Part shown: piece by piece, positions 2,539-59,500 of the stretch
Numbering within the stretch: the first letter of the stretch is position 1
How the letters are laid out: the number at the start of each line of letters is the position of its first letter
DNA from: an uncultured Candidatus Saccharibacteria bacterium
Lineage (GTDB): Bacteria; Patescibacteriota; Minisyncoccia; Phycocordibacterales; UBA1006
Assembly (NCBI GenBank): GCA_964415895.1
Contig: CAYQCC010000001.1
Coordinates: 17,934-81,933 of the forward strand
Reading direction: 5' to 3'
DNA length: 64,000 bases
The notes under the pieces: generated by a model
What the model was told of the DNA's origin: nothing
Database searches by the model: none
What the model saw: only the letters and a program-made list of their open reading frames with translations
Position numbers and translations under genes: made by a program

Positions 2539-3063
2539 ATGAATAATTATTTCTTTGACTCTCAATTTTTATTGTTTATGACAAAAATGTGTCTTGCAAT
2601 GATACTTGGATTATTACTTGGATTGGAACGAGTATACGCACATAAAACCGCTGGCATGCGAACGTACGCACTGGCATCGGTCGCAACATGTTTCTTTGTA
2701 ATTATCTCTTTGTACATCGGATCGTCGATTTCAATCACTGGTGATAGTTTTAGTCCAGCACAAATTGCAGCTGCCGTTATTACAGGAATCGGATTTTTGG
2801 GAGCAGGTTTAATTTTCTTTAAGGATGATCATGTACAGAACTTAACAACAGCTGCAGGATTGTGGATGTGTGCAGGAATCGGAATGGCAGTAGGGTTTGG
2901 AATGTTTCGCGAGGCAATATTCGCAAGTGTGCTAACGTTTTTTGTGCTCGGAGTACTTACATTTTTTGAGCGATATGTCCGACTGAGGTTTTTCCCAGAC
3001 CCAGCGTTTGAACAAGAAAAAGTAAAAGTGGTTAGGGCTCGGAAGAAGGTTTTATTAAAATAA
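2539..3063 (+). CDS. MgtC/SapB family membrane protein
   Basis: The LGLLLGLERVYAHKTAGMRTYALASVATCFFVIISL signature is typical of MgtC. TATAAT at 2527-2532 sits 6 nt before the ATG. Confidence 0.6.
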   Translation: MNNYFFDSQFLLFMTKMCLAMILGLLLGLERVYAHKTAGMRTYALASVATCFFVIISLYIGSSISITGDSFSPAQIAAAVITGIGFLGAGLIFFKDDHVQNLTTAAGLWMCAGIGMAVGFGMFREAIFASVLTFFVLGVLTFFERYVRLRFFPDPAFEQEKVKVVRARKKVLLK

Positions 3064-3078
3064 TTAACTAATATTTAT

Positions 3079-3507
3079 ATGTCTACAATTTTTATTGCAT
3101 TAATCGCAGCAGCAGCAGCACAATTTGTCGGATTTTTATGGCATGGACCGTTGTTTGGTATGATTTGGGCGCGTGCGTCAGATATGGCAGATATGCCAAA
3201 AGACGGAAAAATGACTCCAGAAATGAAACGACATTTCATGTGGCAGTTGATCATCAATTTCATTGCTAACTTTGTTATGGCGTTTGTATTGTTCTACTTC
3301 CTATCAGGAGTTTCAACATTACCGTTTCCATGGTTATTGAAACTGATGGGAATGCTTTTCATTGGATTTATTCTACCAGTTCAGACTATTGGAACAATCT
3401 GGAATGGACGTTCACCTAAAAAACAATTCATTATTTGGGCAATCGCAGGAGGTTTCCAAATTATCAATCTGTTTGTTTGGGCGCTATTGTTCAAATGGTT
3501 GGCATAG
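3079..3507 (+). CDS. small integral membrane protein (DUF1761-like)
   Basis: 142 aa with 4 predicted transmembrane segments. It resembles the DUF1761 family only loosely. Confidence 0.4.
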
Positions 3508-3523
3508 CAATCAAGTAAAAAGC

Positions 3524-5398
3524 ATGGATTTCCGTGCTTTTTCTGTATCCAAAAAATATGGTATTCTAGGGCATATGAAAACGAAACCAGCTTTTAAGAA
3601 TGCGGCACAATTTTTGGATTATTTGAATGAAACATATAACAAACTACACGTTGCATATGAAAATCTTTTTTGGATTTCATATATGGGCGATCATTCTGTA
3701 GATAAAAAATTAAACAAGGCTTTAGCTCTGCGAGATGCATTTCGTTCTAATCCTGATTTTTTGAAACAGGCAGTATCATACCTAAAGAATTCTTCTGCGA
3801 AAGATGCAAGCCGATTAAAAATATGGAAAATGTTTTTCGAACAACACCAAATTCCAGAAAGTGTATTATCTATAAAAAAACAAATTGACGACCTAGAATC
3901 AATAATCATGGAAAAAAGAACAAGTCGTAAGGAGGGCTATATTGATCCAAAAACAAAGAAGTTTGTAGCAGCATCTGAAAACGCGATGCGTATGATTTCA
4001 AGAACTCATTCAGAGGAAAAATACCGAAAGGCAGCTTATGATGCAATGCAGAAATTACCCCTTGATACACTTGATGAATATGTAGAATTAGTAAAACTCC
4101 GAAATAAGTTTGCAACAGAGCTTGGATTTGAGCATTTTTACGCGTACAAATTATGGAACGAGGAAGGAATGAAGATGAAAGAATTGTTTGATTTATTTGA
4201 TAAAATATATGAAAAGACAAAATATGCATTTTCAGATGTACGTAAGCTGGAAAAAACAAAACCTGGTTTACGTCGCCCTTGGAACTACGCATACATGCTT
4301 AGCGGTAATTTTACAAAAGAGGAAGATCAGTATTATCAATTCGACCAAGCACTTGATCGATGGGGAAAATCATTCGCTGCAATCGGAATTGATTACCAAG
4401 GAGGCGAATTACAGCTCGATCTATTAGATCGTAAAGGTAAATATAATAACGGATTCTGTCATTACCCAAAGTCTGTATATAAAAAGGGAAACAAGCTGCT
4501 AAAAGGATCATCGAACTTCACTTGTAATGTGGTATACGGACAGGCTGGCTCAGGTATGCAAGGAATGCATACGTTGTTCCACGAAGGTGGTCATGCGGCA
4601 GATCGATTGAACAGTACTGAATCTGAAATTTGTGTTAACACTGAATATCCACCAGCATCGACTGCCTGGGCAGAAACTCAAAGTATGTTTTTAGACACCA
4701 TGTTTGCAAGCTTGGAATGGAAAGTAAGATATGCAAAGAATGATAAAGGTGAAGCATATCCATTTGAATTGTTTAAAAAGAAGATAGAACAGTTAGGAAT
4801 CTTATCACCACTTTCTATGAATTCGATTCACGGTATGATGGAGTTTGAAAAAAAGATTTATGAATCCAAATCTTTAACAACAGAAAAAGTTCTCGCCATA
4901 GCAAAACAAACTCATAAAAAGTTTAATGACTATAGTGATGATCTTATCTCAGTATTAAATGTCCCACATATTTATTCATGGGAAAGTGCATGTTCGTATC
5001 ATGGCTATGGATTAGCAGAATTAGGACTCAGTCAGTGGCGACAGCATTTTTATGATAAGTATGGATATATTGTAGATAATCCACAAGTTGGAAAAGAGAT
5101 GACACAAGTTTGGAAGCTTGGATCAACAAAAACATTTCCAGAATTTATTAAATTAGCAACTGGTAAAAAGCTTTTATCAAAAGATTATATCGATACGATT
5201 ACTCGTTCAAACGAAAAACGAATAGCACTTGCTAAAAAACGAGTTGAAAGAATGAAGACGGTAAAGCCTTATACAAAACCTGTTAAGTTAAATGCATTGA
5301 TCAAAATGGTTCATGGAAAGAAAGTGATTGCAGATAATAAAAAGAGCTTCGAAGACATGGCTCGCACATATGCGAAATGGCTCAAAACTCAGGACTAG
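3524..5398 (+). CDS. M3-family (oligoendopeptidase F-like) zinc metallopeptidase
   Basis: HEGGHAAD zinc-binding HExxH motif in a roughly 620-aa helical protein. Track ORF 3362..5398. The first in-frame ATG downstream of the 3507 stop is 3524 (MDFRAF...). Confidence 0.5.
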
Positions 5399-5448
5399 AC
5401 AAAAAAAGCTGCTAAATAGGCGCTTTTTTGCTTAGTCATGAATTGTGC

Positions 5449-5454
5449 TATAAT
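5449..5454 (+). promoter_or_regulatory. -10 box TATAAT (extended TGc) with -35 TTGCTT at 5428-5433; ATG 8 nt downstream
   Basis: Sigma70-like hexamers and their spacing, read directly from the sequence. Confidence 0.4.
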
Positions 5455-5462
5455 GCCACCAT

Positions 5463-6092
5463 ATGTCATTTATCGAAAGATTAGGCTGGCGTTACGCCAC
5501 AAAGAAATTTAACGGAGAAATAGTACCAGATTCAATCATTCAGAAAATTAAAGATGCCATTCGTTTTGCGCCATCATCATTAGGTGCTCAACCATTTCAT
5601 GTGGTTGTGGTGAAATCACAAGAAATAAAAGATACATTATTCCAAGAAGGAATTAAACAACAACAGGTTCCAACATCTTCACATGTATTTATTTTTTGTG
5701 CTCGAACAGATTTTCCAGAACGAGCAGAAGCACTTGTTCAATTGGTTTCGAAAGAGCAAGGAACACCTCGCGAAGAATTACAGGGCTATTTCGATATGGT
5801 AGATGGTGCTGCAAAACGTTTTACAACAGTTGAAAGTCTCCGTGACTGGACTGGAAAGCAAGCATACATTGCTCTTGGTTTCGGACTTGCTGCATGCGCA
5901 GAACTTGGGATTGACGCAGGACCCATGGAAGGAATGAATCCTGATGTTGTAAAACAAGTTTTGAATCTTCCAGATTACATGTATCCGCAAATGGTTATGG
6001 CCGTTGGATATCGTGATCCAAATGATCACAATCAGCCAGAATTCCGATCAAAGGTTCGATTTCCAGAATCAGATATGTTTACAGAGATATAG
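5463..6092 (+). CDS. NAD(P)H nitroreductase family protein
   Basis: RYATKKF...IRFAPSSLGAQPFHVVVV N-terminal nitroreductase signature. Length 209 aa. Confidence 0.7.
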   Translation: MSFIERLGWRYATKKFNGEIVPDSIIQKIKDAIRFAPSSLGAQPFHVVVVKSQEIKDTLFQEGIKQQQVPTSSHVFIFCARTDFPERAEALVQLVSKEQGTPREELQGYFDMVDGAAKRFTTVESLRDWTGKQAYIALGFGLAACAELGIDAGPMEGMNPDVVKQVLNLPDYMYPQMVMAVGYRDPNDHNQPEFRSKVRFPESDMFTEI

Positions 6093-6097
6093 ATTTT

Positions 6098-6124
6098 AAA
6101 AAGCAAGCATGAGCTTGCTTTTTT
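6098..6124 (+). terminator. rho-independent terminator (AAGCAAGC / GCUUGCUU + U4)
   Basis: 8-bp perfect stem, loop AUGA, T-run. Confidence 0.7.
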
Positions 6125-6159
6125 ACATAAATATGGTATTTTGCTGGATAGTTAAAATC

Positions 6160-6633
6160 ATGAATATGACCTTTTCTAATTTTATGGATCTTGTTGCAAG
6201 ATTCGATTCAAAATCCTGGAGTAGAAAAGTGCCGGCTACCACAGGACATGTACATTGTGCATCATTAATTTTACCAGAACATATTGCTCTAGAATCCGTT
6301 GCGTCGATGTTATCGATCGGTAATCCTCTTTTTGTCATTACTGCAGAGTTTGCAGATAAATGTAAGCAGGCGAAAACTTGCTGTATTTATTTTATTGAAC
6401 AAGGATATAAAACTGTAACACTGTCAGAGTATGATACGAATAACAGTGTTGGTCCTATTCATGAGATAAAAGAAGAAAAACACCACGAAGGAATCGTTGG
6501 GATTACTTACGGAATTGCACAAACAGGAATTCTGGTAGGTGCGGCAGGTTTTAATGAAGCTGTAAAAACAGTTGCCAGCGAGATTGAGGTAAGAATTATT
6601 CACAACGCCATTTTTCTGGGAAATAATGGCTAA
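6160..6633 (+). CDS. hypothetical protein
   Basis: The ATG at 6160 is in-frame, downstream of the terminator. No confident family assignment. Confidence 0.4.
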   Translation: MNMTFSNFMDLVARFDSKSWSRKVPATTGHVHCASLILPEHIALESVASMLSIGNPLFVITAEFADKCKQAKTCCIYFIEQGYKTVTLSEYDTNNSVGPIHEIKEEKHHEGIVGITYGIAQTGILVGAAGFNEAVKTVASEIEVRIIHNAIFLGNNG

Positions 6634-6714: not shown

Positions 6715-8472
6715 ATGGAAAAACAACACCTTTCTTCATCTGATATCCGAAATAGATTCTTGGCTTTTTTTGAAAAACGCGGCCACGCGATTTTGCCGTC
6801 TGCAAGTTTAGTCCCTGAAAATGACCCTTCGGTGTTGTTCAACACGGCTGGAATGCAACCGCTTGTTCCGTATTTGATGGGACAAAAACATCCACTTGGA
6901 AACCGATTGGCATCATGCCAGAAGTGTGTGAGAACAGGCGATATAGAGGAAGTTGGGAATCACAAGAACCTGACGTTTTTTGAAATGCTTGGAAACTGGT
7001 CATTGGGTGATTATTTTAAAGAAGATGCTATCAAGTGGAGTTATGAATTTTTAACAAACAAAGATGAAGGTCTTGGGCTGGATCCAACGCGATTGTATGT
7101 GACTGTATTTGAAGGTGATGACAATGCGCCACGTGATATGGAAGCAGTTGAGATATGGAAGCAGTATATTCCTGAAAACCGAATTTATTTCCTGCCAGCA
7201 AAAAACAACTGGTGGAGTCCTGGAGATAATGGACCATGTGGACCTGATAGTGAAATGTTTTATGACGTGACACCAAACGGATTGGGTGACATGACTCATG
7301 ACGAATATGTGTCAGCAGATGACGATGGACGGGTTGTTGAGATTTGGAACGATGTATTTATGCAATACCTCTCAAAAGATGGAGCAGTCGTTGGAAAACT
7401 TGATCAAGCAAATGTTGATACAGGATCAGGATTGGAACGAGTGACAATGCTTGTGCAAGGAAAAACAAATGTGTACGAAACAGATTTGTTTGCATCGATC
7501 ATGAACATCATAAAAAATACAGCAGGCGACACATATGAAGAGCGAAGTGCGCGCATTATTGCAGACCATATTAAAGCCGCATTGTTTCTTATGGCAGATG
7601 GAGTATTTCCTTCAAACAAAGAGCGAGGATATATTTTACGAAGAATCATACGAAGAGCTGTATTCCGTGGTGGTAAGCTCAAACTTGATCAAAATGCTTA
7701 CGGGATTATAATGAATCTTTACATTGATATTTATAAAGATATATATCCTGAAGTTACGAAAGAAGGCTTGGCAGAAACTTTTGCTCAAGAAGCGATTAAG
7801 TTTATCAAGACTCTTGATGCTGGATTAAAAGAATTTGAGAAAGGCGTTGATCCGTTTATGCTTGCGACAACATACGGATTTCCGATTGAACTTACGGAGG
7901 AACTTGCAACGGAGAAGGGTATTACGATTGACCGCGCAAAATTCGATCGCGAAATGGCAGAACACCAGGAAAAATCCCGAGCAGGCGCAGAACAGAAATT
8001 CAAAGGCGGGCTTGGTGGAACATCTGACAAGATTGTCCGATCACACACTGCACATCACTTGCTATTAGCAGCGCTTCGGAAAGTTCTAGGTGAACATGTT
8101 CATCAAAGAGGAAGCAATATTACTGATGAGCGTATTCGAATCGATTTTGCACATGATGCAAAAATGACCGATGAACAAAAAACAGAAGTGGAACAACTTG
8201 TAAATGAATGGATTAAAACTGATATGCCAATGCAGCGGATGGAAATGCCACGGGCGGAAGCTGAGCAGATCGGTGCTGAAATGGAATTCGGTGTGAAATA
8301 TCCAGATTTAGTTTCAGTATATTTTATCGGAAACAACCTAGACTCTGCAATTTCAAAAGAATTTTGTGGTGGTCCGCATATTGACCATACAGGATTGATC
8401 GGAACATTCAAGATTCAGAAAGAAGAGGCAAGTAGCGCAGGTGTACGACGCATAAAGGCAGTTATTGAATAG
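6715..8472 (+). CDS. alaS: alanyl-tRNA synthetase, short form (catalytic plus editing domains, no C-Ala domain)
   Basis: The N-terminal class II core matches AlaRS. Editing-site motifs HTAHHLL and CGGPH are present. Only 585 aa. Confidence 0.8.
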   Translation: MEKQHLSSSDIRNRFLAFFEKRGHAILPSASLVPENDPSVLFNTAGMQPLVPYLMGQKHPLGNRLASCQKCVRTGDIEEVGNHKNLTFFEMLGNWSLGDYFKEDAIKWSYEFLTNKDEGLGLDPTRLYVTVFEGDDNAPRDMEAVEIWKQYIPENRIYFLPAKNNWWSPGDNGPCGPDSEMFYDVTPNGLGDMTHDEYVSADDDGRVVEIWNDVFMQYLSKDGAVVGKLDQANVDTGSGLERVTMLVQGKTNVYETDLFASIMNIIKNTAGDTYEERSARIIADHIKAALFLMADGVFPSNKERGYILRRIIRRAVFRGGKLKLDQNAYGIIMNLYIDIYKDIYPEVTKEGLAETFAQEAIKFIKTLDAGLKEFEKGVDPFMLATTYGFPIELTEELATEKGITIDRAKFDREMAEHQEKSRAGAEQKFKGGLGGTSDKIVRSHTAHHLLLAALRKVLGEHVHQRGSNITDERIRIDFAHDAKMTDEQKTEVEQLVNEWIKTDMPMQRMEMPRAEAEQIGAEMEFGVKYPDLVSVYFIGNNLDSAISKEFCGGPHIDHTGLIGTFKIQKEEASSAGVRRIKAVIE

Positions 8473-25960: not shown

Positions 25961-27346
25961 TTATACTTTTCTAACCTTTTGTCCGTCATCTGTATCTTTT
26001 AATTCGTATCCAAGTGCCTGGATTTCGTTTCGAATTAAATCTGATGTATGCCAGTCTTGTTTTTCACGAGCAATTTCTCGTTCCTTCAACAGTTTTTGAA
26101 TGTGATCTGGAATCTCAAATGGCTCGTCATCTGCCGCAACTTCATTAAGTTTTAATCCAAGTACGCGATCAAAATCAAGGATGGTTGCTTTTTTATCAGC
26201 ATCAGAAACGTCAGGATTCTTTATAAGTTCCCAAACAATCGCAAGTCCACCAGCAGTGTTCAAATCATCATTCACAATATCATTAAATAATGTTTGGTAG
26301 GATTCTGAAATTTCTCCAACTTCTTCTATTCGTGAGATATAACTTTGCAGTTTTTTCAAAGCTGTTTCTGATGCAGACAATGCTTCCCATGAAAACGAGA
26401 TTTGTGATCGATAATGTGATTGTAGATATAAATAACGTAACGCAAGAGGGTTGTGTCCGTTTTCACGCACTGTTTCCATAGTGATAGAATTATCGCCAGA
26501 CTTCGCCATCTTGGTATCACCAATGTTTACGAATTCATTATGCAACCAATAATTCACATAAGGTGCATGCCCTGTAGAGCATTCTGATTGCGCAATTTCA
26601 TTATTATGATGAATTGCTGCAAGATCATGCCCACCTGTATGAATATCTAGATGGTCTCCCAAGTATTTCATTCCCATTCCAGAACACTCGATATGCCAGC
26701 CAGGGAAGCCTTGACCCCATGGTGACTGCCAGCCTTTTGTCTCATCGAATTTCCACAATGCAAAGTCACGCGCACTTTTTTTCTCTGTAACTTCGCCAAT
26801 ACGTGATTCGTTAGAACTTGAAAGTCCTCCCAGTTTTCCATAATCCGGCATTTTTTCTGTATCAAAATATATACCATCTGTAGTTGTATATATAAAACCT
26901 TTCTGCTCAAGTTTTTTAATGATTTCAATATCTTCATCAACATGCTCACTTGCTCGTGGAAGGATCTTTGGAGTTAAAATATTCATTTCTCCAATATCAT
27001 TTACGAATACGTCTTCATATTTGCGAGCAAGTTTCAACATGTTTTCAAGATTAATCTCCATTCCTTCACGTTTCAGCCCCTTTGTCATTTTGTCATCTCC
27101 AGTATCATTATCTTCATTCACAAGATGTCCAATATCCGTAATGTTCATTACCTGGTTTACTTGGTAATCGTTATATTCAAAAACACGACGTACAATATCG
27201 GCTAATGCGAATGCTCGTAAGTTGCCAATATGAAGTGACCCATATACCGTAGGTCCACAATGATACATAGAAACAGAGCCAGGTGTAATTGGCTTAAATA
27301 TTTCTTTCTGCTTTGAAAGCGTATTAGTTAGGTAAATTTGTTTCAT
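25961..27346 (-). CDS. cysS: cysteinyl-tRNA synthetase
   Basis: HCGPTVYGSLHIGN (HIGH), KMAKSGDN (KMSKS) and the overall class I CysRS pattern. Confidence 0.9.
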   Translation of the reverse strand: MKQIYLTNTLSKQKEIFKPITPGSVSMYHCGPTVYGSLHIGNLRAFALADIVRRVFEYNDYQVNQVMNITDIGHLVNEDNDTGDDKMTKGLKREGMEINLENMLKLARKYEDVFVNDIGEMNILTPKILPRASEHVDEDIEIIKKLEQKGFIYTTTDGIYFDTEKMPDYGKLGGLSSSNESRIGEVTEKKSARDFALWKFDETKGWQSPWGQGFPGWHIECSGMGMKYLGDHLDIHTGGHDLAAIHHNNEIAQSECSTGHAPYVNYWLHNEFVNIGDTKMAKSGDNSITMETVRENGHNPLALRYLYLQSHYRSQISFSWEALSASETALKKLQSYISRIEEVGEISESYQTLFNDIVNDDLNTAGGLAIVWELIKNPDVSDADKKATILDFDRVLGLKLNEVAADDEPFEIPDHIQKLLKEREIAREKQDWHTSDLIRNEIQALGYELKDTDDGQKVRKV

Positions 27347-55911: not shown

Positions 55912-57717
55912 ATGGCAAAATTACCAAATCTTGAAACTATTGAAAAACCAAAAGGAACCTTTCGGATTTTTTGGTTTATCATAAAACTTTCTTGGCGGAG
56001 TAACAAATGGATATTTTTATCAGCAGTATTGACTACGTTGATTATTGTGGGTTTTCAATTTTTGAACTCTTACAGTTTTGCACAAATTTTGAATATATTG
56101 GTTTCTCCTGATCCAACATGGAAGAGAATTATTCCATTTCTTATTTTAATAGTTTTTTTGGATTATCTGCCTTCCGTATTAGGGTTTCTCCAAGCGTCAC
56201 TTACTGATTTTATTGATCGTGCTCTCCGTATTGATCTTGAGCAATTAGTTTATAAGAAGATTTCTAATTTGGATATTGCAACAATCGAACAGCCCGATTT
56301 CCAGGATATGCTTTATCAAATCAATTCACGGGGAATTGCAGGAATGATCAATATCAATTTCTGGCTCTTTACCTTAATTAGACAAGGTTCGAAAGTGGTG
56401 GTTGCCTTATTTATTCTATTTACGCTTTCAAAGCTCGGATTGTCGATTCTTATTTTAAGTACGATACCAATTTATTTTTATGAGTCATGGCGTGCAAAGC
56501 GTCTTGGTAAAATATTTGCAAGTCAGACTGAGACGAACCGAAAGGCAGGATCACGTGTCGATGCATTTAATAATAAGGATGCGTTAATTGAGGTTAAGTT
56601 TTTTGGACTAGGAAACTATTTCCTTGAAAAAATTAAAGGAATCAGAATGGCACACCATAATCATCTTTCATCTGATGATGTGAAAACTATTCCTCTTTAT
56701 GCTGGCTCACAAGTATTTCCACAAGCAGGAATCATTGTCAGTATTGTTGCTATTATTGGTGATGTTATTAAAGGTGTTCGACCAATCGGAACATTGTCAT
56801 TCATTTGGGGAACTCTTTGGTCATTCTCCGAAGGTTTTACTGCGATCCTTCGATCTGTCGGAAGACTTGAAGAGCATGGAGCCTATGCTTCAAAATTGAT
56901 GAACATGCTCGATATGGACTCTTATGTTTCTGAAAACGTGAATGGTAAAAAATACGACTCAAATTTACCGCCTACAATCGAATTCAAGAATGTTTCATTT
57001 GCTTATCCAGGATCAGATCGGGTGGTGCTTTCTAATATTAATACTGTTATTTCCGCAAATTCCGAAACTGCACTTGTTGGACTTAATGGTGCAGGAAAGA
57101 CGACACTACTTCGACTTTTGTCACGTGTCTATGATCCTACTGAAGGGCAAATTTTGATCAACGGAGTTGATCTGAAAGAGTACTCTTTGAGATCTTGGCG
57201 AGATGCACTTGGTATTATGCTTCAAGATTACAAAGTATATCAGGATGAGTCTATCAAGGAGAACATCACATTCGCACAAGGAAAAGAAGATAAAGATCGT
57301 TTAAGAAAGACAGTCGAAGAAACAGGGGTTGGAGAATATGCAAAATCATATGCAAGTGGAGTTGATCAGATGATTGGAAAGGAATACCGTGGCGGTGTAG
57401 AACTCTCGAAAGGTCAAATGCAGAAACTTGTTCTTGCACGAACTCTCTATCAGAATCATTCATTCTTAATTCTTGATGAACCAACTGCCGCGATTGATGC
57501 GCTTTCGGAAGATTATATTTTCAAGGCATTACGCAATAATCACCGCGGGCAAACACGTGTAATTATTTCACATAAATTTTCAAATGTTCGTGATGCTGAT
57601 AAAATTATTCTTATTAAGAATGGAACAGTTCTCGAACAAGGAAATCATGAGGAACTTATGGAGCTTGGCGGCACATACAAAGAATTATTCGAACTTCAAG
57701 CAGAAGGTTATAAATAA
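55912..57717 (+). CDS. ABC transporter, fused permease/ATP-binding exporter (MsbA-like)
   Basis: 6 transmembrane helices in the N-terminal half. Walker A GLNGAGKTT, signature LSKGQMQKL and Walker B ILDEPT. Confidence 0.75.
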   Translation: MAKLPNLETIEKPKGTFRIFWFIIKLSWRSNKWIFLSAVLTTLIIVGFQFLNSYSFAQILNILVSPDPTWKRIIPFLILIVFLDYLPSVLGFLQASLTDFIDRALRIDLEQLVYKKISNLDIATIEQPDFQDMLYQINSRGIAGMININFWLFTLIRQGSKVVVALFILFTLSKLGLSILILSTIPIYFYESWRAKRLGKIFASQTETNRKAGSRVDAFNNKDALIEVKFFGLGNYFLEKIKGIRMAHHNHLSSDDVKTIPLYAGSQVFPQAGIIVSIVAIIGDVIKGVRPIGTLSFIWGTLWSFSEGFTAILRSVGRLEEHGAYASKLMNMLDMDSYVSENVNGKKYDSNLPPTIEFKNVSFAYPGSDRVVLSNINTVISANSETALVGLNGAGKTTLLRLLSRVYDPTEGQILINGVDLKEYSLRSWRDALGIMLQDYKVYQDESIKENITFAQGKEDKDRLRKTVEETGVGEYAKSYASGVDQMIGKEYRGGVELSKGQMQKLVLARTLYQNHSFLILDEPTAAIDALSEDYIFKALRNNHRGQTRVIISHKFSNVRDADKIILIKNGTVLEQGNHEELMELGGTYKELFELQAEGYK

Positions 57718-57740
57718 AAACGCACATTTGTGTGTTTTTA
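57716..57740 (+). terminator. rho-independent terminator (CGCAC/GUGUG with a G-U pair, + U5)
   Basis: Short stem plus T-run after the ABC gene. Confidence 0.45.
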
Positions 57741-57746
57741 TTTATA

Positions 57747-57775
57747 TTGCAAATACGGCTTAATTTTGCTAATAT
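57747..57775 (+). promoter_or_regulatory. promoter TTGCAA-17-TAATAT driving the aspS leader
   Basis: -35 at 57747-52 and -10 at 57770-75. Predicted TSS at about 57783. Confidence 0.5.
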
Positions 57776-57782
57776 AACTATA

Positions 57783-57930
57783 TTCCAGCGACCCGACTGA
57801 CACTTGGCGAGGAATAAGTTAGAAAGAGTTATAAATGAGGGTGGCACCGCGGAATAATCCGCCCCTCTGAATTTATCAGAAGTTAAGAGTAGTTGCTCAT
57901 AATTTTAAATAAGTTCAGAGGGGTTTTCTT
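57783..57930 (+). promoter_or_regulatory. T-box riboswitch leader (antiterminator/terminator) upstream of aspS
   Basis: Canonical T-box core GAGGGUGGCACCGCGG at 57837-57852. The antiterminator has A1 helix GAGGG/CCCUC, a 7-nt bulge UGGCACC and A2 helix GCGG-AAUAAU-CCGC. The competing terminator is CCCCUCUGAA (57862-71) paired with UUCAGAGGGG (57914-23) plus UUUUCUU. The bulge UGGC can pair with a 3' GCCA acceptor end (G73, as in tRNA-Asp). GACA at 57796-99 is a possible Asp specifier, but Stem I would be unusually short. Confidence 0.65.
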
Positions 57931-58078
57931 GTATTAGCAAGAGCTTCGCAACTATTATTTTTCTATCCTGCGTATTTGTTTCTTTATTTGAGCAGCTCAG
58001 TGGTCTCATACTCGAATGCGAAAAATAATAGTTTGCTTTGCTCTTGTTTTTATAACAAGACTTTTCTGAATCATCTTT

Positions 58079-59500
58079 ATGAAAGATAGAATTTTAATTG
58101 GTGACTTATCAAGTCACAAGGGAAGTGAGGTCACAATCAATGGATGGGTTTCTGTTCGTCGTGATCAAGGGAAAATGGTTTTCTTTGATTTTCGAGATCG
58201 TACCGGATACGTGCAAGGAGTAGTTTTGCCAGGAAGTGCTGCAATCGACATTGCGAAAGAAATCAAAACTGAATATGTTGTTTCTGTTACAGGTAAAGTA
58301 AATGAACGACCAGAACGAAACCGACAGGCTGATAAGCAAAACGGTGATATCGAACTTGAAATTCTTGGAATGGAAATCTTGAACGAGACTGAAACGCTTC
58401 CATTTGAAATCAGTAGTGATACATCGGTAGTAGGTGAGGAAACACGCTTGAAATACCGATACATTGATTTACGCAGCGAGCGTGTTCAGAAAAACATCCG
58501 TATGCGCCACAAGATTCAGAAATTAATTCGTGACTTCTTGGATGGACAAGGATTCATCGAAGTGGAAACTCCAATCCTAACAAAGTCGACTCCAGAAGGA
58601 GCGCGTGATTATATTGTTCCATCACGTCTATATCCAGGAACCGTATATGCGTTGCCACAGTCGCCACAACAATACAAACAGCTGTTGATGACAGCAGGAG
58701 TGGAACGGTACTTTCAATTGGCACGTTGTATGCGCGATGAAGATACACGTGGAGACCGACAACCTGAATTTACGCAGCTAGACATGGAAATGAGTTTTGT
58801 TGATCAGGATGCAGTAATGCAAGTTAACGAGGAATTACTTATTAAAGTTGTGCAGGATTTATATCCAGAAAAGAAAATTCAGCAAATTCCATTTCCACGA
58901 ATTACCTATAAAGATGCGATGGAGAAATATGGAAATGACCGGCCTGATATTCGAAATGACAAAAATGATCCAGACTTGTTAGCGTTTTGTTGGGTAATTG
59001 ATTTCCCATTTTTCGAACCTACTGACAAATCAGACAATCCGGATACACATGGTGCATGGACATTTACTCACAATCCGTTTTCTGCACCAAAACCAGAACA
59101 TATGGAATGGTTAATAGAAAAGAAAAATATTGGTGAAATTTTGACGACACAATACGACATTGCATTGAATGGTTATGAAATTGGTGGAGGATCAATTCGA
59201 AACCATAAACCAGAAGCACTTCGAACAGTGTTTGAAATTATTGGACATAAGTCTGAAGACATTGATACAAACTTTGGCCACATGTTAAAAGCCTTTTCAT
59301 CTGGCACTCCGCCACATGGTGGAATTGCTTGGGGATTTGATCGATTCTTGATGCTGTTGCAAGGTGAGCCAAACATCCGCGAGGTGATCCCGTTCCCAAA
59401 AACAGGGGAGGGACGAGACTTAATGATGAATGCACCAGCTCCAGTTTCAGATCGACAGTTGGAAGAGCTTCATTTGATTGCAAAGAAAAAGAGTATTTAG
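58079..59500 (+). CDS. aspS: aspartyl-tRNA synthetase, short (archaeal/eukaryotic-type, no GAD insertion domain)
   Basis: N-terminal OB anticodon-binding domain and class II motifs (FRDRTG...; QSPQQYKQLLM; GGGSIRNH; GIAWGFDRFLM). Only 473 aa. Confidence 0.85.
   Translation: MKDRILIGDLSSHKGSEVTINGWVSVRRDQGKMVFFDFRDRTGYVQGVVLPGSAAIDIAKEIKTEYVVSVTGKVNERPERNRQADKQNGDIELEILGMEILNETETLPFEISSDTSVVGEETRLKYRYIDLRSERVQKNIRMRHKIQKLIRDFLDGQGFIEVETPILTKSTPEGARDYIVPSRLYPGTVYALPQSPQQYKQLLMTAGVERYFQLARCMRDEDTRGDRQPEFTQLDMEMSFVDQDAVMQVNEELLIKVVQDLYPEKKIQQIPFPRITYKDAMEKYGNDRPDIRNDKNDPDLLAFCWVIDFPFFEPTDKSDNPDTHGAWTFTHNPFSAPKPEHMEWLIEKKNIGEILTTQYDIALNGYEIGGGSIRNHKPEALRTVFEIIGHKSEDIDTNFGHMLKAFSSGTPPHGGIAWGFDRFLMLLQGEPNIREVIPFPKTGEGRDLMMNAPAPVSDRQLEELHLIAKKKSI

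Follow-up and report, generated by a model that had tools for sequence, protein, structure and literature searches.

The 64,000-nucleotide (nt) stretch analyzed here in full, which we call the window, comes from contig CAYQCC010000001.1 of an uncultured Candidatus Saccharibacteria bacterium (assembly GCA_964415895.1) and carries aspS, a gene for an aspartyl-tRNA synthetase (AspRS), downstream of an ABC-transporter open reading frame (ORF). The leader between these two genes contains a promoter, a very short hairpin, a single-stranded linker, a T-box antiterminator and an overlapping intrinsic terminator (Table 1). Very probably, as its sequence and predicted folding indicate, this leader is a T-box-type, tRNA-sensing transcription attenuator for aspS with the smallest known natural layout, about 87 nt (57781-57867). 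It appears to work like a T-box and keeps the T-box core, while lacking several features both of the Rfam T-box family RF00230 and of the ultrashort Stem I (US) class, and it would thus represent a new architecture.

Table 1. Features of the aspS leader and its surroundings, in window coordinates.
Feature	Position	Strand	Description and basis
ABC-transporter ORF	55912-57717	+	Matches ABC_tran; stop codon at 57717
Terminator-like hairpin ending the ABC-transporter gene	57709-57746	+	18-nt inverted repeat, 94% complementary
Promoter	57747-57775	+	-35 TTGCAA 57747-52, 17-nt spacer with TG at 57767-68, -10 TAATAT 57770-75
Ultrashort Stem I	57783-57814	+	32 nt in total; covariation; RNAalifold gives the same helices independently
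Stem I, C-stem	57783-86 and 57811-14	+	UUCC pairs with GGAA
Stem I, 3-nt bulge	57787-89	+	AGC
Stem I, tandem G·A/A·G and mismatch	57790-92 and 57808-10	+	G57790·A57810, A57791·G57809, then C57792·C57808
Stem I, upper helix	57793-96 and 57804-07	+	CCGA pairs with UUGG, 4 base pairs
Stem I, terminal loop	57797-57803	+	CUGACAC, 7 nt
Specifier	57799-57801	+	GAC (Asp codon), preceded by U57798 and followed by purine A57802
Linker, single-stranded	57815-57836	+	22 nt from Stem I to A1; RNAalifold predicts no conserved pairing
Purine string of Stem III	57824-28 and 57833-34	+	AAGAG (RRRxG motif) and AA
Site of the Stem III helix	57829-32	+	UUAU; no pairing there (RNAalifold)
AAUGAGGGUGGCACCGCGG, with T-box sequence and 7-nt bulge	57834-57852	+	High posterior probability in the RF00230 alignment
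T-box 16-mer GAGGGTGGCACCGCGG	57837-57852	+	Read from the sequence
Antiterminator (discriminator core)	57837-57867	+	RF00230 alignment, covariation, folding
A1 helix	57837-41 and 57863-67	+	GAGGG pairs with CCCUC
T-box bulge	57842-48	+	UGGCACC, between A1 and A2
A2 helix	57849-52 and 57859-62	+	GCGG pairs with CCGC; loop AAUAAU
Intrinsic terminator	57861-57931	+	Hairpin 57861-57925, then U-run UUUUCUU
Long hairpin in the terminator-aspS spacer	57936-58050	+	z = -4.5 against shuffles
aspS, the regulated gene	58079-59500	+	473 amino acids (aa); NCBIfam aspartate--tRNA ligase equivalog, 621 bits, in two stretches

The T-box core GGGTGGNACCGCG is present as a single copy in the 64-kb window, against 0.04 copies expected from shuffles. 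A previous interpretation made from the letters alone (the sequence-only reading) had proposed that a T-box controls a short-form aspS at this site. The 16-nt T-box sequence and the antiterminator that it described, with A1, the UGGCACC bulge and A2, are present where it placed them, the helices covary, and control of aspS by such an element is supported by covariation and by the recurrence of the leader before aspS genes of Patescibacteria. The promoter that it located about 55 nt before the T-box sequence is likewise there, with a -10 placement that recurs in most relatives. Strand 57861-57867, comprising the 3' strands of A2 and A1, doubles as the 5' strand of the terminator, so the two structures are mutually exclusive. 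This overlap and the U-run had been recognized correctly, but the terminator hairpin is longer than the 10 base pairs (bp) then assigned to it, having about 16 bp plus an apical extension; our simple terminator scanner missed it because its loop exceeds the scanner's 8-nt limit.

The predicted energetics are those of a switch that is off by default: the free energies of the terminator hairpin (-34.7 kcal/mol) and the antiterminator (-12.9 kcal/mol) favor termination. Folding the leader with and without the terminator strand, a comparison suggested by the sequence-only reading, gave two different structures. The minimum-energy fold of a transcript stopping at 57869 consists of Stem I and the antiterminator, and the full leader folds into the terminator and is far stabler than shuffles (z = -4.7). 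In a script-based search, 24 of the 43 leaders of the family had a hairpin followed by a U-run downstream of the antiterminator, among them the window and the relatives L201, L204, L206, L209 and L210 (labels of this form denote fetched loci or metagenome contigs). Because the aspS start codon lies 150 nt downstream of the terminator, the read-out is, judging from this layout, transcriptional control; the Shine-Dalgarno sequestration of the US class is absent from this leader. In the bulge, UGGC is complementary to a 3' GCCA end and would thus predict a tRNA with G73. In general, both tRNA-Asp and tRNA-Asn have G73.

Stem I is reduced to a specifier hairpin on a bulged base. The specifier lies in the terminal loop of a hairpin closed by a 4-bp helix, which on this point is the arrangement of the US class, and none of the features of a long Stem I (specifier-loop S-turn, AG bulge, distal loop or elbow platform) is found in the window. 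An ultra-short Stem I had been anticipated, and the covariation of its helices among relatives bears this out. The proposed GAC(A) specifier is also present, with only GAC or AAC found at this place in relatives, but it lies at 57799-57802 rather than at 57796-99, coordinates that were 3 nt too low. The succession of C-stem, 3-nt bulge, G·A and A·G pairs, a non-Watson-Crick pair and a further helix constitutes a kink-turn (K-turn) signature, suggesting that the base of Stem I is K-turn-like. In a set of 14 relatives found through their AspRS protein, and therefore collected independently of the leader sequence, this signature is present in 13 (the exception is L017). The pair adjoining the K-turn bulge is C-G or U-G in all 40 of 40 sequences.

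The specifier itself is informative. In the 14 protein-found relatives the aligned triplet is GAC in 12 and AAC in the other two (L067 and L206), always with a U before it and a purine after it. The AspRS of L206 is 95% identical to that of the window, and a swap between GAC and AAC in front of the same enzyme would be hard to explain unless an anticodon reads the loop triplet. The presence of AAC in place of GAC in such close relatives suggests that this AspRS also charges tRNA-Asn. The U and purine that flank the triplet resemble positions 33 and 37 of an anticodon loop, and by analogy one may speculate about a loop-loop complex. Tandem codons were seen in some specifier loops, GAU-AAC in L067 (~4795-4805), AAC-GAC in L206 (~975-990) and GAU-GAC in L019 (~790-800); with such a loop, a single leader might serve a non-discriminating AspRS by reading tRNA-Asp as well as tRNA-Asn.

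The leader belongs to a family that can be followed through related aspS loci. The window AspRS is of bacterial type, with the Pfam domains tRNA_anti-codon and tRNA-synt_2 found and the GAD insertion domain PF02938 not found. Its nearest relatives all come from assemblies of Patescibacteria, or candidate phyla radiation (CPR), labeled Paceibacterota, Nomurabacteria or Parcubacteria, in keeping with the earlier suspicion of a CPR-like genome; identity reaches 74% among species representatives and 98% in metagenomes. The exact window AspRS sequence is not on record, and homologues of 91-98% identity were used instead. Of 80 species-level loci from Patescibacteria, 8 have a T-box directly before aspS, and in two more it precedes a small ORF with aspS as the second gene. 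T-box leaders are also present in five closer relatives, whose AspRS identities to the window are 98% (L201), 95% (L206), 93% (L204) and 91% (L209 and L210). Where the leaders of the window and L201 differ, they do so in the bulge of the K-turn, in the linker and at the apex of the terminator. A metagenome pattern scan returned 120 stretches, about 45 of them genuine T-boxes and most of these upstream of aspS; many other matches were discarded as chance occurrences in coding DNA. About 30 metagenome contigs have the leader design of the window.

Right after the -10 box, the relatives have in common a short C-stem, a 3-nt bulge, GA, one unpaired-looking nucleotide and a 3-4-bp helix, followed by a 6-9-nt loop with U-GAC-A, the return strand, 1 nt, GA and the returning C-stem. 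At the level of sequence, this is the signature of a K-turn with the specifier hairpin directly on top. Across 40 distinct sequences, 80% of cells in the Stem I helices are paired, compared with 31-40% when the partner strand is slid, and the covariation score is 0.70 versus 0.09-0.14, with none of 500 shuffles reaching the observed values. The register of this alignment was set by the spacing to the two GA dinucleotides and not by pairing, and N padding was confined to loop columns; a plain MAFFT alignment was dropped since it moved a 1-nt difference in length to the end and threw the 3' strand out of register. Unguided, RNAalifold applied to an alignment of 24 leaders of the minimal class (83-98 nt) recovers the C-stem, the upper helix, A1 and A2 only, and nothing in the linker. 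In these 24 leaders 92% of cells pair, versus 39-48% in slid controls, with A1 paired in 100% and A2 in 91% and with compensatory changes present. The minimal layout is found in several separate AspRS lineages.

Some members of the family depart from the window in other ways. At the A2 pair next to the T-box bulge, most relatives, like the window, have G-C, with A-U in L001 and L019 and G·U in L100 and L186. A UGGU bulge together with aspS as the second gene was seen in L037 (216-302 and 554-2537), after a 196-aa ORF, and in L031 (~4560-4700 and 4788-6395), after a 51-aa Cys-rich ORF.

Between Stem I and A1 the window retains the purine string of Stem III without its helix. The RRRxG…AA string is conserved among relatives, and in canonical T-boxes the corresponding 5'-RRRxG–Stem III–AA-3' string packs against the T-box bulge and A2 (PMC7583486). 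The site of the Stem III helix is occupied by 3-4 nt in the window, L130, L201, L204, L206, L209, L127 and L019, and by a hairpin at exactly this position in L105, L112, L100, L143, L179 and L001. A weak AU-only "Stem III" in the window (57814-17 with 57829-32) was rejected as unconserved and absent from the RNAalifold prediction, which likewise contains no Stem II S-turn or Stem IIA/B pseudoknot in the 22-nt gap between Stem I and A1. Stem II-like inserts of 50-140 nt with AGUAGA follow Stem I in L011, L023, L051 and L067. The family thus forms a series running from leaders that contain Stem II to fully minimal ones, with the window at the minimal end.

The position of the promoter points to a transcript with little in front of Stem I. 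The promoter matches 8 of 12 consensus letters, below the 9/12 cut-off of the simple scanner, which hence did not report it. Transcription would start at about 57781-57783. The TAATAT of the window ends 14 nt upstream of the first conserved GA of Stem I; for most relatives from Patescibacteria this distance, measured from the end of the best -10-like hexamer, is 12-16 nt.

We propose the following mechanism. Transcription would start a few nt before the K-turn-based hairpin, whose 7-nt loop would offer the Asp codon to the tRNA-Asp anticodon. From there the RNA would run through 9 unpaired nt and the purine string AAGAG-UUAU-AA into the antiterminator, where the UGGC bulge would pair with the free 3' GCCA end of an uncharged tRNA. 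This pairing would stabilize the weak antiterminator over the terminator, so that polymerase would read through into aspS. A charged tRNA could not provide this stabilization, and transcription would stop at the U-run. We infer the binding of tRNA, the discrimination between charged and uncharged forms, the G73 of tRNA-Asp in this genome and the anticodon-loop mimicry.

Several observations weigh against this interpretation. At gathering thresholds, Rfam reports three tRNAs in the window and no T-box, and the RF00230 search proposed in the sequence-only reading produced a match only when run permissively (57701-57869, E = 6.7e-6), at 33.8 bits and therefore far below the gathering threshold of 93. 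In that alignment the posterior probability is high over the antiterminator alone, and the Stem I of the model is forced onto the upstream terminator and the promoter. None of 18 relatives scanned with RF00230 reaches the gathering threshold. This is no refutation, because the model expects the missing domains, and a T-box that lacks them (the long Stem I, Stem II and Stem III) can be expected to score low. Folded alone, 57782-57872 is no stabler than shuffles (z = -0.36). The A2 closing pair (57849/57862) is G-C, where a conserved G·U wobble beside the bulge has been described as the steric sensor of the aminoacyl group (PMC7583486). According to the same review, there is no appreciable binding of tRNA to an antiterminator that lacks Stem III, and transcriptional T-boxes generally depend on the platform of a long Stem I to capture tRNA fast enough (PMC7583486). 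The literature would thus predict that an RNA this reduced binds tRNA poorly; the support for tRNA sensing comes from sequence, energetics and covariation. Furthermore, ARAGORN scans of the window and of at least 200 fetched loci turned up no gene for tRNA-Asp or tRNA-Asn. Finally, the metagenome pattern fixed TGACA, GAG and GGTGGCACCNCG, and the conservation of those letters is not independent evidence.

An alternative is that the leader is a decaying relic, left from a canonical T-box after genome reduction, that no longer senses tRNA and serves as a constitutive or leaky terminator or as a structure in the 5' untranslated region. Patescibacteria genomes are indeed reduced, T-box presence is patchy (L208 and L212, with AspRS 79-81% identical, have none) and the missing parts are called necessary in the literature (PMC7583486). 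However, decay does not readily account for compensatory substitutions in each of the four helices in a set of over 40 diverged sequences, for an invariant T-box bulge and purine string, for a loop triplet that is only GAC or AAC, or for the recurrence of the minimal layout in several separate AspRS lineages, and we regard a relic as very unlikely. It is also unlikely that the leader is a T-box-derived attenuator that depends on an additional factor, such as a K-turn binder of the L7Ae family, another RNA-binding protein, or an unusual tRNA or RNA polymerase of Patescibacteria. The contacts that have been lost must be compensated somehow, the K-turn signature shows strict conservation, and proteins that bind K-turns are known to associate with those of T-boxes (PMC7583486). 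Yet this analysis identified no candidate factor, and a layout shared by lineages with different types of AspRS, including a translational version, argues for a mechanism intrinsic to the RNA.

We give almost no credence to the notion that the leader is a canonical T-box with a long Stem I or a Stem II that escaped notice, either because transcription starts further upstream, as read-through from the ABC transporter, or because the domains lie elsewhere. Formally, RF00230 does align model positions 1-219 to 57701-57869, but the upstream part of that alignment has low posterior probability and runs over a stop codon, the upstream terminator hairpin and the promoter. That hairpin bounds the room for the leader on its 5' side, and only 65 nt separate the ABC-transporter stop codon from Stem I. 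The upstream neighbor genes differ among relatives, including L204, L206 and L210, yet the leader starts at the same place after the -10 box, nothing further upstream is conserved, and RNAalifold finds no additional conserved helix. As far as the compared sequences go, there is neither room for nor conservation of a longer Stem I. A miniature T-box that senses tRNA remains our preferred explanation of the locus.

Whether the window typifies something broader is a separate matter. We lean slightly toward a functional, widespread and unannotated class of miniature T-boxes (83-98 nt) in which a specifier hairpin stands on a K-turn and is joined by a helix-less purine string to an NCCA-binding bulge. 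Such a class would be transcriptional in Patescibacteria and translational in a second lineage, and its GAC/AAC swaps, and possibly its tandem codons, would reflect the reading of tRNA-Asp or tRNA-Asn for a non-discriminating AspRS.

The second lineage was seen on rumen- or gut-type metagenome contigs (L096, L134, L140, L142, L147, L157, L163, L165, L166, L191 and L192), where a mini Stem I with a K-turn and a terminal-loop specifier precedes a full-length aspS (589-593 aa). One homologue only has an organism label, an "Alphaproteobacteria bacterium" metagenome-assembled genome, so the lineage can be placed only tentatively. These leaders have no terminator; instead, CCCC in the 3' strand of A1 can base-pair with AGGGG, a Shine-Dalgarno sequence that lies 5-6 nt ahead of the AUG. 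In this they resemble translational ultrashort T-boxes, with aspS in place of ileS as the regulated gene. In L096, L134, L157 and L163 the leader begins about 20-30 nt from the 3' end of a tRNA gene (…GGGCACCA), and the T-box of this lineage may be co-transcribed with the tRNA and released by processing. Contig L166 (+ strand, ~2720-3000 and 3169-3876) also bears, on the strand opposite its mini aspS T-box, a second, long T-box with an AAC specifier; by its N-terminal sequence, the product of the gene downstream resembles AsnRS or AspRS of class II. An intermediate form occurs in L085 (336-404) and L102 (384-451), on contigs of about 28% G+C. Its Stem I consists of a lower helix and a short distal hairpin that lacks a platform, and the loop carries UGUGACA on its 3' side; aspS lies downstream of one of the two leaders. 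These leaders suggest a graded series of Stem I truncations outside Actinobacteria.

The 150-nt spacer between the terminator and aspS, which the sequence-only reading had left unexplained, does exist and can now be accounted for structurally by a long, lineage-specific hairpin. Its outer stem is formed by AGCAAGAGC with GCUCUUGUU and its inner stem, of 14-16 bp, by AACUAUUAUUUUUC with GAAAAAUAAUAGUU, an inverted repeat that is complementary at 14 of 14 positions. The hairpin is found with some compensatory changes in L201 and L204 and is absent from L001, L209 and L210. In L206 (~1090-1200) the spacer holds a different palindromic insert, GTCATTCC…GGGATGAC, and "ggatgac" repeats similar to it precede aspS in L031 (~4950-4990); such inserts are perhaps small palindromic repeat elements that occur in Patescibacteria genomes. 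That the spacer might be part of the switch was rejected because L001, L209 and L210 do without it and L206 has a different insert, and a repeated mobile element was rejected because the window holds no second copy. On the comparative evidence, the spacer is a lineage-specific structured insert outside the conserved switch.

Closer to the gene, 8-20 nt before the aspS AUG, a 7-12-nt copy of the terminator 5' strand (UCUGAAU..AUC) occurs at 58060-58072. The same is seen in L201, L204, L206, L209, L210, L105, L182 and L067, whose spacers otherwise differ, and no Shine-Dalgarno-like sequence is visible at the site. The longest shared word averages 5.6 nt, weakly above the 4.8 nt of cross-locus controls. 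The copy could pair with the terminator 3' strand.

T-box control in the window appears to be specific to aspS. The window alaS (short, 585 aa) and cysS, at 6715-8472 and 25961-27346 (-), show neither a T-box motif nor a match to the family model. Neither gatCAB nor an AsnRS gene was found among the 10 largest ORFs of the window. The tRNA-Ile gene of the window encodes CCA.

If miniature T-boxes of this class are functional, co-transcriptional tRNA sensing would require neither the elbow platform nor Stem II nor a Stem III helix. The rules set out in the review literature (PMC7583486) would be put directly to the test by a conserved, covarying natural family that has none of these parts. At about 87 nt, it would define the smallest tRNA-sensing riboswitch, attractive both for structural work and for engineering orthogonal tRNA-responsive switches. 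It would show tRNA-sensing RNA regulation in Patescibacteria, and a search for T-boxes together with Patescibacteria, CPR, Saccharibacteria or Parcubacteria found no open-access paper that links them, although many subscription papers lay outside its scope and a prior description is possible. Since leaders of this class stay below the gathering threshold of the Rfam model, T-box censuses built on RF00230 would undercount. In addition, the swap between GAC and AAC in front of near-identical aspS genes would link the switch to indirect Asn-tRNA synthesis.

The leader can be compared with several known systems. Complexes between the complementary anticodon loops of two tRNAs are classical biophysics, and the window hairpin resembles them, by analogy only, in its 7-nt loop, its U- and purine-flanked triplet complementary to the tRNA-Asp anticodon and its short closing helix. 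With the canonical Firmicute-type T-boxes of RF00230 it shares a 14-nt T-box sequence, the 7-nt bulge, A1 and A2, an overlapping terminator and the K-turn of Stem I, whereas it is without the specifier-loop S-turn, the AG bulge, the distal loop, Stem II, the pseudoknot and the Stem III helix. The T-loop platform of glyQS T-boxes is needed for fast tRNA capture, and their Stem III helix has been described as indispensable (PMC7583486). The glyQS type of Bacillus subtilis and Geobacillus resembles the window leader in its succession of Stem I, linker and discriminator, its lack of Stem II, its K-turn base and its terminator/antiterminator read-out; in contrast, glyQS has a long Stem I with an interdigitated T-loop platform as well as a Stem III helix, and the window leader has neither.

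Sherwood, Grundy and Henkin reportedly recognized an ultrashort Stem I class at actinobacterial ileS in 2015. As summarized in two sources, members of this class replace the normal Stem I by a short helix with the specifier in its terminal loop, are translational and actinobacterial, and rely on Stem II and a pseudoknot, and all members described there regulate ileS and respond to tRNA-Ile (bioRxiv 10.1101/2023.02.28.530422; PMC7583486). The window differs from them in its intrinsic terminator, its regulated gene, its GAC specifier, its Patescibacteria host and its lack of both Stem II and a Stem III helix. What it shares with them is a short helix with a terminal-loop specifier, the lack of an elbow-binding double T-loop platform and the same bulge and discriminator logic.

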